NCBI RefSeq assembly: GCF_024700885.2
Contig: NZ_CP117016.1
DNA: 64,000 nt
Strand: one strand, 5' to 3'
Source of the DNA: Escherichia coli
GTDB taxonomy: Bacteria > Pseudomonadota > Gammaproteobacteria > Enterobacterales > Enterobacteriaceae
How positions within the stretch are numbered: the stretch's first letter is position 1; every line of letters starts with the position of its first letter. Both the position numbers and the translations under genes were made by a program. Below the pieces are notes generated by a model. It searched no databases, was not told where the DNA came from, and saw only the letters and a list, made by a program, of their open reading frames with translations. This document shows positions 31,870-42,134 of this stretch, one piece after another.

Positions 31870-32214
31870 TCAGAACTCTTCGATTTTCCATCCGCCACCT
31901 GCTTTCTTTGGCTTAACCGTTACCCCGATGATTCGGAACGGATACTGATCTGCGGCGATTTTGGTTTTCACCCTGGCGTCGTCTGTCCAGAAACCTTTCA
32001 CTTCGTGCAGTTCCATCTCTCCGGTGGCGAGCATCACAGCAAAATCTGGCGTATAGAACGTGTTGTCAGCTAACCGCAGCTTGATACCCTCGAATCGATA
32101 CCAGGCGATTTCCCCTGCACGTTTACGCTGCTCAAGGTGCTGGCAATACGCAGATTCTGTTTTGTTCATCTGGCCTGTTTTGAGTCGACCAAGAGCCTGC
32201 ATCTGTTTTCTCAT
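31870..32214 (-). CDS. DUF1064-like phage protein (putative nuclease)
   Basis: ~114 aa with YTPDF...HEVKG motif; nin-region position after P. Confidence 0.45.
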   Translation of the reverse strand: MRKQMQALGRLKTGQMNKTESAYCQHLEQRKRAGEIAWYRFEGIKLRLADNTFYTPDFAVMLATGEMELHEVKGFWTDDARVKTKIAADQYPFRIIGVTVKPKKAGGGWKIEEF

Positions 32215-32217
32215 GAT

Positions 32218-32294
32218 TTACCTCTGAGGTAATTAAAAACCACATAAGACACGAAATCAATAGAGTTTAGAATATTTTATTACCTGATGGGTAA
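32218..32294. promoter_or_regulatory. two operators TTACC-TCTGA-GGTAA (32218-32232) and TTACC-TGATG-GGTAA (32280-32294) flanking an AACCACATAAG motif
   Basis: Palindrome family shared with the immunity region; directly upstream of the gene starting at 32214. Confidence 0.5.
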
Positions 32295-32331
32295 TTATTT
32301 GAGCGTAAAAAAATGCGCTATCGCGCTGGTA

Positions 32332-33132
32332 TTACTTGATAAATCCTGCCGCCTTTCCCCGCCTGTATTCCTCCATCAGCCACTGCGCCGGTGTTATTCC
32401 CCCAAGGGTGGCGGCGTTAGGCATGCATCCGAAACTTCGCCCTGGTGGATGGTAAACGTCTCTCCCTGTGTCCGGAGGTGTACTCATGGGCTCTGGCTTT
32501 GCCTGTATGCTGATCACCGGATCGGGTATCTGCTGTCCGGAAGCCACCTTTTTCGCCCAATCATCGAGCAGCCTGCGCGCGTGTTTCTCAACCTCAATCT
32601 CGCTAAGCTGGCGCTGATACATTGCACGGCGGGTATCACATACGACCCAGTACATAACCGGATGTCGCCACGGGAATCTTTCGGGACCACCAGGATATAA
32701 ACTTTTTTCCTTGCTGTACCGGTGAAACTCCGCCATCACATCGTCAATGGTGACGCCAAGAACCATCTTGCTGTCTTTACACCACTTGATGAATTGCCCA
32801 GGCGACGGCCAGAACGGAGATTCACTGGCGCGGGCGTGGCGCATACCAGCAGAAACCTGTTCACGGGTTCGGATCCCCCCTTCGGCAAACGCAGCAATCC
32901 ACTGCTGTTTTGCAGCTACTTCCTGCCCTGGCGTCTTCAGGTTGGTTACCACTGCCGCCGGAAACAGTTGTTTCAGCTGTTTGAAAAGGGCATCAACAAG
33001 CCTCTCTGCTGACATGTTAACCACATTGTCATTGTTGACGTACTGATGCTCATAACCTGACATGCGAGAAAGGGCTTCTCCGTCACGGTTTTGTATCGCG
33101 GTAAAAACGTTGTTCACAAGAAATCCTCCCAT
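32332..33132 (-). CDS. replication protein P (DnaB helicase loader)
   Basis: GGIRTREQVSAGMRHARASESPFWPSPGQFIKWC closely parallels lambda P. Confidence 0.8.
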   Translation of the reverse strand: MGGFLVNNVFTAIQNRDGEALSRMSGYEHQYVNNDNVVNMSAERLVDALFKQLKQLFPAAVVTNLKTPGQEVAAKQQWIAAFAEGGIRTREQVSAGMRHARASESPFWPSPGQFIKWCKDSKMVLGVTIDDVMAEFHRYSKEKSLYPGGPERFPWRHPVMYWVVCDTRRAMYQRQLSEIEVEKHARRLLDDWAKKVASGQQIPDPVISIQAKPEPMSTPPDTGRDVYHPPGRSFGCMPNAATLGGITPAQWLMEEYRRGKAAGFIK

Positions 33133-33929
33133 GCTTCAGGGCTGTTCCAGTGCGGAACGTTGTTATCAGGTAATGTTGATTGCTTCTGTCTGCTAATCTG
33201 CAGCCGCCTTGCCAGCTTCTGCTCCCACTGTGCCTGATGGTATGCCTTACCCTCAGCCATCCAGTAAATTCTGAACTCTGCAAGTTCCTGTGCCGTTGGC
33301 AGACTGTCCAGGTAGATCCCCTGCAATGAGCTTTTCCGAAGAAAGTCATCTGATGGCTGCCATTGTTCATGCATGACAAATTTTCCTAATTGCCCTGGTC
33401 CACCAGGAGGAACAAAGTTATTCATCACGGCGTTGTTTGCTCCGGGGTCATGAGGCACAGAATCCCCGCTTTTTGTCCTGCTCTCCCTCTCTTGGTTAAA
33501 TGACTGGTTATATGACTGGTTCTGGATCCCGTTTTTGGGATCATTCAACATCCCGTTTTTGGGATCATTCAACATCCCGTTTTTGGGTATATTCCCGTTT
33601 TCGGGAACATTACCGTTTTCGGGTTCATTACGTCCTTCTAGGTTGCCTTTAATGTTCCCTTTTTTGGTTATATTAAGAGAGAAAACCCGCACTCTTTTCG
33701 TCGCTCCCTTTCTCTCTCCGGTATCTGAAATAAGCCCCATTTTCATGAGCGATATAAGCCCGGCCTGCACGGTTTTTTTATTCAGGCAAGTGTCTTTAAC
33801 GAGGCGTTCTATGCTGGGGTAGCAGAGGTTATATTCATCGGCTCTGTCAGCCATCGAGAGCAGTATGAGCTTTAATGACGAGCTACCTGGATCTGTCTCC
33901 CAGGCCCAATCTGTTGCATGTCTGCTCAT
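33114..33929 (-). CDS. replication initiator O-like protein
   Basis: Precedes P; N-terminal HTH-like region; central Asn/Pro/Gly-rich repeats encoded by the iterons. Confidence 0.7.
   Translation of the reverse strand: MSRHATDWAWETDPGSSSLKLILLSMADRADEYNLCYPSIERLVKDTCLNKKTVQAGLISLMKMGLISDTGERKGATKRVRVFSLNITKKGNIKGNLEGRNEPENGNVPENGNIPKNGMLNDPKNGMLNDPKNGIQNQSYNQSFNQERESRTKSGDSVPHDPGANNAVMNNFVPPGGPGQLGKFVMHEQWQPSDDFLRKSSLQGIYLDSLPTAQELAEFRIYWMAEGKAYHQAQWEQKLARRLQISRQKQSTLPDNNVPHWNSPEAWEDFL
33527..33640. repeat. origin-of-replication iterons inside the O gene
   Basis: About five direct repeats of ~23 bp (ATCCCGTTTTTGGGATCATTCAAC and CCGTTTTCGGG variants) followed by an AT-rich tract. Confidence 0.7.
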
Positions 33930-33944
33930 GATTAATCTCCGCTA

Positions 33945-34145
33945 TCAGCTTGAATGTTGTGGGGAGGAATTAATCATGATCTGCTTAATCTCAGCCCTGA
34001 TGCGACGGTTTGATTCCATGGTGCACTCAACACAGTGTCCGTTGTAAACCCAGCGTTCACTGTCATGTCCGTGCTTACATGGTTTTCCGGTGTAGTAGCG
34101 TTTAAGTCCGCGCTTTGCGGCATCAATACGTGTAATGATTTCCAT
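33945..34145 (-). CDS. small zinc-ribbon-like protein (CxHxH...CxxC)
   Basis: Start set at internal Met MEIITRIDAAK; occupies the cII-like position between cro and O. Confidence 0.4.
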   Translation of the reverse strand: MEIITRIDAAKRGLKRYYTGKPCKHGHDSERWVYNGHCVECTMESNRRIRAEIKQIMINSSPQHSS

Positions 34146-34225
34146 GGTAAGCCCTGTTATTAGTATTGGGATTACGGTCATTTTGTGCTGACACAAAAAA
34201 AAGATCAACCACATTTGGTTTTTTA

Positions 34226-34240
34226 TTACCCTTAAGGTGC
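34226..34240. promoter_or_regulatory. operator-like site TTACC-CTTAA-GGTGC plus palindrome AACCACATTTGGTT (34207-34220), downstream of a tR1-like hairpin
   Basis: Hairpin AGACCGCC/GGCGGTCT at 34265-34282. Confidence 0.4.
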
Positions 34241-34295
34241 GAATAGATATGAAAAGACCGCCGGATGGCGGTCTACAGAGGGTTGTGGCTGGATA

Positions 34296-34526
34296 TCATG
34301 AGTAGAAGAAGTATGCCAATTCTGCTTTTGAGCGCAGCCATTGTCTTGTTTTACAGGCTTTAAAAAGCCCATTCATCAATACCTTACCTGGCATTTTGCG
34401 CTTACCTGTTAAGTGAGTCTGGATATAGTGACTCGTCGTTCCGGCTTCCTGTGCGAAGGCTTCACGCTCATCCGGAGTAAGTGCAAGCCAGTGCTTTTTG
34501 AAATCGAAATGTCCGTTATCGCTCAT
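34296..34526 (-). CDS. Cro-like HTH regulator
   Basis: 76 aa; divergent from the repressor gene; HTH-like segment EAFAQEAGTTSHYIQTHLTG. Confidence 0.55.
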   Translation of the reverse strand: MSDNGHFDFKKHWLALTPDEREAFAQEAGTTSHYIQTHLTGKRKMPGKVLMNGLFKACKTRQWLRSKAELAYFFYS

Positions 34527-34562
34527 AGCTATTGCCTGATATTTATTTCAGATAATAAATAT

Positions 34563-34625
34563 TCACCCATAAGGTAACAAAAATCAAGGATAGTTACCCA
34601 TGAGGTGCATTTACCTGTTGGGTAA
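34563..34625. promoter_or_regulatory. tripartite operator in the repressor/cro intergenic region
   Basis: TCACC-CATAA-GGTAA (34563-34577), TTACC-CATGA-GGTGC (34594-34608), TTACC-TGTTG-GGTAA (34611-34625). Confidence 0.6.
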
Positions 34626-34680
34626 TATTGCTTTAAATTGAATCATCTTCTGATTCATATATGAGGCGATTTTCCAGAAA

Positions 34681-35265
34681 ATGAAAAGTATCCAAGACGT
34701 CCGCAGGCAAAATCTCAACGACTTGATCGACCGTGAATTCAATGGTGTTCAGACGCGGATGGCTGAAAAACTTGGAACTCAGGCAAATCTGGTAAACCGC
34801 TGGGCTCTTGGCAAGAAGGTTATCGGCGACCAGGTTGCGCGAAAAATTGAAGCTGCCGCCAATAAACCACGTAACTGGCTTGATATCGATCGCTCGCTTT
34901 CTCAGGAGGGTTTTCAGCCTGTCGGACCAAGCGACATTGGTCAGCTGGCGGCTCACAACCTGGAACGCTGGATGAGCGAAAGCCGCGACCTTTCAACACA
35001 GGGAAAACTTCACCGCGCATCCGGCGTCGCCCAAGTGACAATCAGCCGCCTGTTAAACAATGAGGTCAGCGTTTCCATTTCCACCCTGGAGAATGTTGCA
35101 TCTGCATTCGGACGTCACGGATATGAACTACTGATTCACCCGCACGACCCTGCAACTATCAACTATGACCGCTCGCGCTACGCATTGTTACCTGAAACCG
35201 AGAAAGCAAAGATCGAAAGTTACATTGAATTTGTCATCAACCAGAACGAAAAAAACAAACAATAA
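34681..35265 (+). CDS. prophage repressor (CI-like), two HTH domains, no S24 peptidase domain
   Basis: HTH-like segments near residues 20-60 and 110-150; no Ala-Gly / Ser-Lys autocleavage motifs seen; divergent from the cro-like gene. Confidence 0.65.
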   Translation: MKSIQDVRRQNLNDLIDREFNGVQTRMAEKLGTQANLVNRWALGKKVIGDQVARKIEAAANKPRNWLDIDRSLSQEGFQPVGPSDIGQLAAHNLERWMSESRDLSTQGKLHRASGVAQVTISRLLNNEVSVSISTLENVASAFGRHGYELLIHPHDPATINYDRSRYALLPETEKAKIESYIEFVINQNEKNKQ

Positions 35266-39113: not shown

Positions 39114-40364
39114 TTATTCCCCCGCCATCCACTTCTCAAACTTCGACGGGGAGAACGGAATCAGATCCGTATGCTCCCCGTTAATCCAGGAATCAATCAT
39201 ATCGGCCCACTGCTGCAACATGTAGGCGCGCTGTCTGGCGTATTCCGCTTTGTTATATACGGCGCGCACACCTTTCTGCTCATGTGCCAGAGCCTTTTCA
39301 ATCCAGTCTGAAGGATAACCAGCCTCATGCAACAACGTACTGGCTGTACGGCGCATATCGTGTACGGTGAAGTCCTGAATATGCTCACCATCTTCATTTA
39401 TTATTTTCACCGTTCTGTCGATCAGAGAGTTCAGCGCGGCATTAGATAATGGCTTCCGGAAATTGTAACGACCAGGAACCAGATATTCACTTCCACCAGC
39501 GCACATCTGCAACCCGACCAATATATCCTGAACCTGTTTAGGCAGGTAAATAACATGCGCCCGGCTTCCCTTCATGCGGTCTGAAGGAATTGTCCATGTC
39601 CATTTTTTAAAATCTATTTCATCCCACGTTGCATTGGTGAATTCGCCCTTACGAACCATAGTGATAAGCACCAGTTTTAAAGCCATTTTCATAGTGCCCA
39701 TAGCACCAATGGCATCCAACGTGCGGAAGAACAGGCCAATTTCTTCTGGTGTCAGTGTTCGCTCTCGTGGTTTAAATATGGCGATAGACGAAGGTTTAAT
39801 GTCAGCCGCAGGATTAAACAAACCATGACCACGGTCATTGGCGTGACGGTATACGCTGCTGATGATCTCCCTGGCCTGTACTGCTGTTGCCCGACCACCG
39901 CGTTCGACAATCCGGTCACACAAATCACGAACCATCGATGTGGTAATTTCAGCCATCATTTTGTTGCCAAGAACCGGAAGTATGTCACGGTCGATCACCG
40001 CCTGCTTCATTGCGCGGGTACTGTCAGCCAGGATGACGTGTTTCATATAACTGTCGGTATGTACCGCAAACGTCTCGGCACCACGAATTTTTTTGATACC
40101 GTCACGTTTAGCCGCAGCCGGCGACTGGCCTGCTTTAAGCAGCTTCTTTGCAGCAATCAGTTCTTCTCGCGCTTCTGCCAGGCTGATACCGTCACGCCCA
40201 TACTGCCCGATTACCAGTGTTTCGCGGCGACCGTTGATACGGTAGTCATAGCGAAACGAGACCGTGCCTGACGTAAGCACAGCTACATACAGCCCGTCAC
40301 GATCGGAGACCTTGTACAGTTTGTCCTGCGGCTTGAGGTTTTTTAATTTTGTATCGGTAAGCAC
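39114..40364 (-). CDS. int: tyrosine integrase (P4-like, N-terminal DUF4102-type arm-binding domain)
   Basis: 416 aa; C-terminal catalytic region with HDMRRT and terminal Tyr-containing segment; adjacent to attR. Confidence 0.9.
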   Translation of the reverse strand: MLTDTKLKNLKPQDKLYKVSDRDGLYVAVLTSGTVSFRYDYRINGRRETLVIGQYGRDGISLAEAREELIAAKKLLKAGQSPAAAKRDGIKKIRGAETFAVHTDSYMKHVILADSTRAMKQAVIDRDILPVLGNKMMAEITTSMVRDLCDRIVERGGRATAVQAREIISSVYRHANDRGHGLFNPAADIKPSSIAIFKPRERTLTPEEIGLFFRTLDAIGAMGTMKMALKLVLITMVRKGEFTNATWDEIDFKKWTWTIPSDRMKGSRAHVIYLPKQVQDILVGLQMCAGGSEYLVPGRYNFRKPLSNAALNSLIDRTVKIINEDGEHIQDFTVHDMRRTASTLLHEAGYPSDWIEKALAHEQKGVRAVYNKAEYARQRAYMLQQWADMIDSWINGEHTDLIPFSPSKFEKWMAGE

Positions 40365-40571: not shown

Positions 40572-42134
40572 GGTAGCTGGCGGCTTGCCGCTGATGTCAT
40601 ACACCACGCGGGAAATACCGTTCACTTCATTGATAATGCGGTTGGAAACGCGACCGAGGAAATCGTACGGCAGATGCGCCCAGTGTGCGGTCATAAAGTC
40701 GATGGTTTCGACAGCACGCAGAGAAACAACCCAGTCATACTTACGACCATCGCCCATTACACCAACGGAACGTACCGGCAGGAAGACGGTGAACGCCTGG
40801 CTGACTTTGTCGTACAGGTCCGCTTTACGCAGTTCTTCAATAAAGATGGCGTCAGCACGGCGCAGCAGGTCGCAGTACTCTTTCTTCACTTCGCCCAGTA
40901 CACGAACGCCGAGGCCTGGTCCCGGGAACGGGTGACGGTACAGCATGTCGTACGGCAGGCCCAGCTCCAGACCAATCTTACGCACTTCGTCTTTGAACAG
41001 CTCTTTCAGCGGTTCAACCAGCCCCATCTTCATCTCTTTCGGCAGGCCGCCCACGTTGTGGTGAGATTTGATGACGTGTGCTTTACCGGTTGCAGACGCC
41101 GCAGATTCGATAACGTCAGGGTAGATAGTACCCTGCGCCAGCCACTTCACGTCTTCCAGTTTCAGCGCTTCTTCATCGAATACTTCAACGAAAACGCGCC
41201 CGATGATTTTACGTTTTGCTTCCGGATCGTTTTCGCCGGCCAACGCTGACAGGAAGCGATCTTCTGCCGGAACGTGAACAATGTTCAGACCAAAGTGATC
41301 GCCAAACATATCCAGAACCTGCTCTGCTTCGTTGAGACGCAGCAGGCCGTTGTCGACGAATACGCAAGTCAGGTTTTTACCGATAGCGCGGTGCAGCAGC
41401 ATTGCGGTTACGGAGGAATCCACACCACCAGAGAGGCCGAGGATGACTTTATCGTCGCCTACCTGCTCGCGGATGCGAGCTACAGCATCGTCGATAATTT
41501 TCGCTGGCGTCCACAGGGCTTCACACTGGCAGATATCTCGCACAAAGCGCTCCAGCATGCGCATACCCTGGCGGGTGTGAGTCACTTCCGGGTGGAACTG
41601 TACGCCATAGAAGCGTTTTTCTTCGTTAGCCATAATGGCAAACGGGCAGCTTTCGGTGCTGGCTACGGTGACGAAGTCGGACGGGATAGCGGTAACTTTA
41701 TCGCCGTGGCTCATCCAGACATCGAGCAGAGGTTTACCGTCTGCGGTCAGAGCATCTTCAATACCGCGAACCAGTGCGCTGTCGTTTACGACTTCAACCT
41801 GCGCGTAGCCAAATTCACGTTCGTTAGAGGCTTCAACGTGACCGCCCAACTGCATTGCCATGGTCTGCATGCCATAGCAAACGCCGAATACCGGTACGCC
41901 TGCTTCAAAAACATACTGCGGCGCACGCGGGCTGTTTTCTTCGGTGGTGCTTTCCGGGCCGCCGGAAAGAATAATGCCGCTTGGGTTGAAGTCACGAATT
42001 TGTGCTTCTGTCACATCCCACGCCCACAGTTCGCAGTAAACGCCCAGCTCACGCACGCGGCGCGCAACCAGTTGAGTATACTGGGAACCGAAGTCCAGAA
42101 TGAGGATGCGATGCTTATGAATGTTTTCCGTCAT
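40557..42134 (-). CDS. guaA: GMP synthase (glutamine-hydrolysing)
   Basis: 525 aa; class I glutamine amidotransferase N-domain and ATP-pyrophosphatase motif SGGVDSS. Confidence 0.97.

Follow-up and report, generated by a model that had tools for sequence, protein, structure and literature searches.

The 64-kb window studied here (the whole stretch that was analysed, from Escherichia coli contig NZ_CP117016.1; all coordinates below are window positions) contains a prophage whose replication initiator gene holds, in its central part, an array of iterons flanked by a short tandem repeat and by an AT-rich patch. As judged from sequence comparisons, these repeats, which occupy the stretch of the gene that codes for a linker, are very likely the vegetative replication origin of the prophage, a phiV10-like (Uetakevirus) element. 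The region is 96-98.5% identical at the nucleotide level to phiV10, PAS61, phiv142-3 and related Uetakevirus phages, and the phage-like part of the window reaches to about position 40572. Directly downstream of the initiator gene, as in lambda-type origins, lies a helicase-loader gene; its product is a member of the lambda P family, with 31% identity to lambda P itself over 201 amino acids. Upstream are found a divergent gene for a CI-like repressor (34681-35265, plus strand) and a small cro-side gene. The initiator, the loader and the other relevant genes are all carried by the minus strand, and the iterons are numbered in the direction of the gene (Table 1).

The iteron array, its flanks and the initiator

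The TCCCGTTTTYGGG iterons extend over 33528-33668, as five good copies and one degenerate copy. On the plus strand, the pattern TCCCGTTTTYGGGWWCATT starts at 33527, 33551, 33575, 33593 and 33611 with zero or one mismatch, and a sixth match, with three mismatches, starts at 33656. Six matches in 64 kb compare with 0.11 expected from the shuffle mean; none of 100 shuffles reaches six, and the window contains no match outside the array. The spacing is uneven, with steps of 24, 24, 18 and 18 bp (mean 21) or, in gene direction and including the degenerate copy, of 45, 18, 18, 24 and 24 bp. Thus, of the "about five ~23-bp direct repeats" proposed in the original prediction, the number holds, with a degenerate sixth copy in addition, and the period has to be replaced by 18 or 24 bp. 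Each unit is a dyad, ATCCC-N6-GGGAT or CCCG-TTTT-CGGG, centred on a T/A tract. Read in gene direction, the five iterons are CCC[A/G]AAAACGG[G/T], from 33623 down to 33528, with the dyad-symmetric consensus CCC-RAAAAY-GGG enclosing an A-tract; the array thereby has the three to four or more direct repeats of a lambda-type origin. Relatives, too, have a distal copy at a comparable offset, and the exact iteron core is confined to the initiator-gene cluster in each of the approximately 200 loci that were fetched.

Several smaller observations concern the array and its surroundings. A weak iteron-like sequence, CCCCGCTTTTTGTCC, is located at 33464-33478, about 63 bp past the last iteron and on the far side of the 12-bp repeats; it has three mismatches in the window and two in about 17 close relatives. 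Three GATC (Dam) sites, at 33525, 33539 and 33563, fall within 42 bp at the proximal iterons, as compared with 4.2 per kb over the window. GATC is also present in the iterons of the Edwardsiella phage GF-2 and is missing from those of the Vibrio and Acinetobacter relatives; a link with SeqA or with methylation is possible. In a scan of 32200-34800 for promoters and terminators, the counts were not above those of shuffled sequences. Two plus-strand "intrinsic terminators" flagged at 33536 and 33560 (33536-33579) are iteron dyads followed by a T-tract, and such calls are therefore a predictable false positive for annotation pipelines.

Beyond the last iteron lies the 12-bp tandem repeat, with copies ATGACTGGTTC (33512-33522) and ATGACTGGTTA (33500-33510) and a partial copy (33493-33499). 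In gene direction it reads GAACCAGTCAT, then TAACCAGTCAT 12 bp further on, from 33522 down to 33500, so that the two 11-mers begin at +17 and +29 from the start of the last iteron. phiV10 carries three of these 12-mers and the window two. The TGACTGGTT duplication (33501-33509 and 33513-33521), to which the original prediction had given a passing remark, is present as described and is part of this tandem repeat. As will be seen below, it is more than an aside: it belongs to a second conserved element, at the position taken by the AT-rich region in lambda.

On the other side of the array, the AT-rich stretch announced beside the repeats was readily recovered. The GC content is 0.325 over 33640-33699, and the least stable 30- and 40-mers of 32300-34300, in a nearest-neighbour stability scan, fall within the patch (AT 0.72-0.77). 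This patch, in the region of which the degenerate iteron ACCAAAAAAGGG is found, corresponds to the 95th percentile of local instability, about three standard deviations from the mean. The same scan applied to lambda as a control recovers its known AT-rich region (39131-39160), and the downstream flank of lambda reaches the 99th percentile. Directly after the last iteron of the window, where lambda has its strongly AT-rich region, the 12-bp repeats are found instead; this block has 63% AT and stands at the 82nd percentile. The patch as a stability minimum is not conserved in relatives having the same N-terminal domain and iterons. Family-wide, the two flanks of the array range from the 43rd to the 98th percentile and neither is consistently extreme; hence, duplex stability does not assign the unwinding element.

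The initiator has an N-terminal domain, a long linker and a C-terminal domain. Pfam detects HTH_36 at residues 18-67 and DnaT at residues 184-252. An AlphaFold2 model, built from an 82-sequence alignment, gives residues 1-89 with an H-H-H-H-E-E winged-helix topology (predicted local distance difference test, pLDDT, 88-98), a linker predicted to be disordered (residues 90-178, pLDDT 44-52) and a C-terminal domain (residues 180-250, pLDDT 85-97). The repeats encode residues 99-146 of this linker, NEPENGNVPENGNIPKNGMLNDPKNGMLNDPKNGIQNQSYNQSFNQ, the array proper (33528-33623) corresponding to residues 99-135. The proposal that the repeats encode the linker is therefore borne out, and the origin elements are located between the coding regions of the two domains, as in lambda.

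The affinities of the two domains are unequal. The C-terminal domain (residues 180-265) matches residues 85-170 of E. coli DnaT in a phmmer search of the Protein Data Bank (E=6e-21), with approximately 50-55% identity. It superposes on the complex of DnaT(84-153) with single-stranded DNA (ssDNA; 4ou6), found by Foldseek with a target-normalised template-modelling score of 0.89-0.92 and 51-54% identity. For the N-terminal domain, Foldseek returned only generic MarR-type winged helices, and weak matches to winged helices include 4pql and 5kbj (E about 0.05-0.09). Two family assignments were considered and rejected. Membership in the full-length DnaT family (HAMAP MF_01061, as annotated for phiV10 gp43) does not hold, since only residues 180-265 match and the N-terminus is an unrelated winged helix; the record labels "primosomal protein I" and "DnaT" are thus partial. 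Membership in the lambda O family does not hold either: Pfam finds no Phage_rep_O (PF04492), which is present in lambda O, and hhalign against the N-terminus of lambda O gives 7.5% probability. The gene had been called O-like, a name that suits its architecture and the P-family gene that follows it but not its family. When the N-domain profile and lambda O were searched against the sequences of solved structures, nothing usable was obtained.

Table 1. Features of the origin region and of the neighbouring replication genes (window positions)
Feature	Position	Strand	Basis or remark
Replication initiator gene (271 aa), O-like by architecture only	33114..33929	-	Open reading frame, Pfam, nucleotide identity
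N-terminal winged-helix domain, residues 1-88, presumed iteron-binding	33666..33929	-	AlphaFold2, Foldseek
Disordered linker, residues 89-179, holds the origin DNA elements	33393..33665	-	AlphaFold2, translation
DnaT-like C-terminal domain, residues 180-265	33135..33392	-	phmmer, Foldseek
Lambda-P-family helicase-loader gene	32332..33132	-	Overlaps end of initiator gene; Pfam PF06992, E=8e-56
AT-rich patch	33647..33686		Least stable duplex within 2 kb; candidate unwinding element, N-terminal side of array
Degenerate distal iteron core CCCTTTTTTGGT (ACCAAAAAAGGG in gene direction)	33657..33668		45 bp from array
Iteron 1 core ACCGTTTTCGGG	33612..33623		Pattern scan
Iteron 2 core CCCGTTTTCGGG	33594..33605		Dyad CCCG/CGGG around TTTT
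Iteron 3 core CCCGTTTTTGGG	33576..33587		Pattern scan
Iteron 4 core CCCGTTTTTGGG	33552..33563		Within perfect 24-bp unit
Iteron 5 core CCCGTTTTTGGG	33528..33539		Last iteron in gene direction
12-bp tandem repeat	33493..33522		Tandem Repeats Finder, 2.4 copies; conserved second origin element

Constraint on the DNA rather than on the peptide

Because the repeats are coding, it must be asked whether they are anything else than a slippage-prone, low-complexity code for a flexible Asn/Pro/Gly linker, with no function as DNA. The repeat-coded region is indeed predicted to be disordered, and its copy number is polymorphic in in-frame steps. Among 80 prophages of the IMG/VR collection (L008-L087), with N-terminal domains 97-100% identical, the array has four to seven good copies, and the changes are always of 18 or 24 bp, with the frame kept. 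(In one of these prophages, L020, the initiator gene is truncated to 549 nt.) Such an explanation may be regarded as highly improbable in view of the conservation of the DNA across distant relatives, which is described in this section.

A search with the N-domain profile among 1.84 billion representatives returned 19,570 clusters at E<=1e-3, roughly 2,500 at E<=1e-10 and 98 at E<=1e-30. Further scans of IMG/VR, with the same profile and with a double 11-mer pattern, gave nearly exclusively near-identical phiV10-like prophages. Ten loci were compared: the window, the GenBank phages Edwardsiella GF-2, Vibrio Her and Acinetobacter AP22, and six members from the profile search, metagenomes included. 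The window is the first member of the N-domain alignment A1 (MSRxATDWAW...DTGERKG.T.RV), and its N-terminal domain is 41-52% identical to those of GF-2, Vibrio Her, AP22 and PPompW. All ten loci possess three to six iterons with the same core, spaced by 24 bp proximally and by 18 bp distally. In a motif scan, the start of the first GAACCAGTCAT-like 11-mer follows that of the last iteron by exactly 17 bp in eight of them (the window and seven of the nine others); AP22 and P0041 have diverged versions of the 11-mer at the same offset.

An ungapped block of 84 nt has a mean identity of 74%, as compared with 49-63% for the N-domain DNA. Where the amino acid is identical, the codon itself is kept much more often in the origin block than in the N-terminal domain: 19/22 versus 18/47 with GF-2 (Fisher p=2e-4), 23/27 versus 11/45 with Vibrio Her (p=5e-7) and 17/22 versus 10/38 with AP22 (p=2e-4). 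Overall, synonymous codon retention is 77-86% in the origin block and 24-38% in the N-terminal domain, so that synonymous sites are conserved far above the level of the folded domain.

Moreover, identical iteron DNA is translated in each of the three frames, into the unrelated peptides PKNG, xQKRx and PKTG. Distal iterons leave frame 0 in GF-2, P0006 and P0041 (+1, T/S-Q-K-R-D/N) and in Vibrio Her (+2, P-K-T-E). Among 130 full-length representative proteins sharing at most 50% pairwise identity, the frame signatures P[KE][NI]G, xQKRx and P[KE]T[GE] occur in 96, 58 and 23 proteins, respectively, and 57 proteins contain at least two of them; none of the three motifs was found outside residues 81-200 in this sample. 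The 11-mers behave likewise. In seven of the ten loci two copies are 13 bp apart, hence in different frames, and identical DNA is read as NQS and then as EPV, which yields the common peptide "QNQSLEPVIEP". In the window, where the copies are 12 bp apart, they are read as NQSY and NQSF. The comparisons thus indicate that constraint acts on the DNA and not on the peptide, since a peptide-level explanation cannot account for the frames, the codons and the fixed 17-bp offset; from this conservation, a function as DNA is deduced.

Modularity and relationships with known replication systems

The N-terminal domain, the iterons and the 11-mers form a set that is inherited as a whole, whereas its partners differ. 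In the window and in PPompW, this set is joined to a DnaT-like domain and followed by a P gene. In GF-2 (L002, 2001-2843), a natural chimeric initiator with the N-terminal domain, the CCCAAAATTGGG iterons and the 12/13-mers of the HTH_36-type family continues into the C-terminal domain of lambda O, followed by lambda P. Other partners are a primase-helicase (L209, L210), DnaB (AP22), a DnaC/IstB-like loader (L212) and P (L213). Conversely, the Uetakevirus relative SPN1S (L006, 1548-2363) has the DnaT-like C-terminal domain behind a different N-terminal domain; SPN1S lacks the iterons, and no repeat family of at least three copies was found in it. There is also no P gene ahead of its DUF1064 gene. 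The comparison of SPN1S with the window therefore shows that the origin with the initiator front end, and the loader as well, have been exchanged within one genus. As judged from these arrangements, the iterons and the 12/13-mers are co-inherited with the N-terminal domain, independently of the C-terminal domain and of the helicase partner.

Binding of the initiator to such an array could also serve autoregulation, copy control or titration, replication then starting elsewhere in the prophage. Plasmid iteron arrays provide a general precedent for this idea, as they act also in copy control and handcuffing. Yet the search for other multi-copy repeat clusters in the prophage part of the window revealed none, the array lies just where the origin has been proven to be in lambda and in the Shiga toxin (Stx) phages, and it moves as a unit with the N-terminal domain across differing helicase partners. 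A purely regulatory role is accordingly judged unlikely, and the array is better explained as the origin itself.

The GF-2 chimera is of particular value for the interpretation of the flanks. Its nucleotide sequence is homologous to that of lambda O from CGTC-GAGAATTCTG-CGAATCCTC onwards, that is, just right of the AT-rich region of lambda and just past the 12/13-mer block of GF-2. From the position of this junction, the 12/13-mer block is the positional equivalent of the AT-rich region of lambda. This bears on a reading built on the layout of the original prediction, in which the AT-rich patch next to the iterons would unwind and the 12-bp repeats would be accessory or have no part in opening. 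In favor of that reading, the patch is the least stable segment of 30-40 bp within 2 kb and sits between the degenerate iteron and the main array. On the other hand, it is not kept as a stability minimum in relatives, part of it codes for the end of the folded N-terminal domain, and the block swapped for the AT-rich region of lambda in GF-2 is that of the 12/13-mers. Opening at the patch is thus the less likely of the two, although it is a serious alternative.

The comparison with lambda is otherwise close in several respects. In both cases, the middle of the initiator gene, which codes for the linker, houses the origin, a P-family loader is encoded next, the N-terminal domain pairs with the iterons and the C-terminal domain with the loader. 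Both have four to six dyad iterons of the form CCC...A-tract...GGG (lambda TCCCTCAAAACGAGGGA, window TCCCAAAAACGGGA), with the A-tract on the sense strand. The differences are equally clear. The N-terminal domain of the window initiator is HTH_36 and not Phage_rep_O, and its C-terminal domain is DnaT-like and not that of lambda O. The iterons have shorter arms and a regular spacing of 18 or 24 bp. A 40-bp stretch with approximately 80% AT follows the last iteron of lambda; the window has the conserved repeat pair in its place. Finally, the AT-rich patch of the window precedes the iterons in gene direction, whereas that of lambda follows them. Thus, the mirroring of the lambda arrangement that had been proposed stands for the iterons within the gene and fails for the AT-rich stretch, which lies on the opposite side and is unconserved in the family. 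The origin would work like ori-lambda yet is outside the lambda O/ori family. A distant common ancestry with lambda O/ori is possible in view of the likeness of the iteron cores (TCCC-TC-AAAAC-GA-GGGA in lambda, TCCC-A-AAAAC-GGGA in the window) and of the HTH_36 domain that HHpred was reported to find in lambda O (Brezellec et al., PMC5509034).

Other systems share some of these traits. The Stx phages 933W and P27 have six iterons instead of the four of lambda, and 13 extra linker residues (PMC7466680). There, as among the phiV10-like prophages, iteron number varies between close relatives and extra iterons lengthen the linker of the initiator; these origins are nevertheless true lambda O/ori relatives, while the window initiator comes from another family. 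The closest described protein architecture is that of DopC/DopE of Cellvibrionales and Oceanospirillales, a domesticated phage gene pair on the chromosome, for which the authors found no iterons (Brezellec et al., 2017, PMC5509034). The window initiator belongs with it by its composition, an HTH_36 and DnaT-C protein followed by a lambda-P-family protein, but it is the phage version, in which the iteron array is intact. E. coli DnaT, whose C-terminal domain is so similar, is recruited by PriA/PriB to abandoned forks and has its own oligomerising N-terminal domain; in the window, the domain is fused instead to a winged helix that is presumably sequence-specific. In RepA_N iteron plasmids such as pSK41, too, the origin lies within the rep gene, a winged-helix N-terminal domain binds central iterons and the C-terminal domain varies with the host. 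These are theta plasmids of Gram-positive bacteria and not phage early operons, and the winged-helix matches 4pql and 5kbj mentioned above are weak.

A possible course of initiation and its implications

Considering these properties, a sequence of events may be envisaged. Dimers of the winged-helix N-terminal domain would bind the five or six dyad iterons and form an O-some-like complex. In lambda, the outer G residues of the iterons are contacts and the A-tracts are bent (PMC7466680). The complex would then strain an adjacent segment open, more likely the 12-bp repeats and less likely the AT-rich patch; the 12-mer block is favored because of its conservation, its fixed offset and its location at the chimera junction. 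DnaT-like domains, tethered by approximately 90 disordered residues, would coat the exposed single strand, in the manner of the C-terminal domain of DnaT in the restart preprimosome. On lagging-strand ssDNA, this domain of the E. coli protein was described to assemble into a helical filament, which "marks the helicase-loading site" (PMC13377028). Finally, the lambda-P-like protein would deliver the host DnaB. In this scheme, we infer the binding by the initiator, the unwinding and its site, and the role of the DnaT-like domain.

Some points speak against this reading of the locus. The 12-mer block lacks an AT richness of lambda grade, and the AT-rich patch that does exist in the window is unconserved and precedes the iterons. 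The 12/13-mers might also bind a protein that has nothing to do with unwinding. By sequence, the N-terminal domain could be linked neither to lambda O nor to any solved initiator; and replication, binding and unwinding are all inferred. Even so, the identification of the repeats as the origin of the prophage appears to us the best supported by the comparisons above.

A bolder proposal, which we put forward only tentatively, is that the locus exemplifies a very large, undescribed family of origins in phages of Proteobacteria. In this family, two or three conserved GAACCAGTCAT repeats located 17 bp from the last iteron, and not an AT-rich tract, would specify unwinding or helicase loading, and the initiator would perhaps read them as ssDNA. 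The initiator of the phiV10 branch might then be imagined as an "origin-targeted DnaT", its DnaT-like domains forming a filament on the opened strand, bypassing PriA/PriB and presenting the strand to P-DnaB.

Up to now, the annotation of these elements has been limited to their proteins. The phiV10 RefSeq record labels the initiator "replication initiation protein (DnaT family)" and leaves the origin unannotated, and the label "replication initiation / primosomal protein I" is also in use for the gene of phiV10 and PAS61. The records of GF-2, Vibrio phage Her, AP22, PPompW and SPN1S likewise lack an origin annotation. A 261-bp origin segment is found in 420 of 5,426 complete E. coli genomes (approximately 8%), where the sole annotation is a coding sequence (CDS) for a "DnaT-like ssDNA-binding domain-containing protein". 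Searches of the literature for the origins of phiV10 and epsilon15 and for the iteron, 11-mer and peptide strings returned nothing relevant in openly searchable papers, subscription papers being outside their scope.

An unrelated observation was made elsewhere in the window. A perfect 8-bp tandem array of GCACAGCA (42.8 copies, 4419-4760), within the open reading frame 3644-4768 (plus strand), makes up the 3' end of an acyltransferase-like gene, where it is translated as (AAQQHSST)n. The octamer is not a multiple of three, hence gain or loss of copies would shift the frame, and phase variation is possible. The gene is rare: it occurs in 10 of the 5,426 complete E. coli genomes and is absent from the phage collection. 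The segments 33440-33700 and 3644-4420 are both 100% identical to E. coli MLI114 (NZ_CP117013.1), where they are about 29 kb apart.

The feature described here is of an ordinary kind, a phage origin, in a variant that appears to be undescribed; the variant is widespread and of cleanly defined anatomy. It locates the origin of phiV10-type (Uetakevirus) prophages, so far annotated as CDS only, and leads to a correction of the label of the initiator, from "DnaT / primosomal protein I" to "origin-binding initiator with a DnaT-like C-domain". It also supplies an iteron-bearing phage counterpart to the domesticated DopCE pair. In practice, PKNG, xQKRx, PKTG and QNQSLEP serve as peptide signatures by which origins can be recognised within thousands of phage initiator genes. 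Finally, the association of one set of N-terminal domain, iterons and 12/13-mers with at least five solutions for helicase recruitment constitutes a natural experiment, which could be used to probe the role of repeats that are not AT-rich in the opening of an origin.

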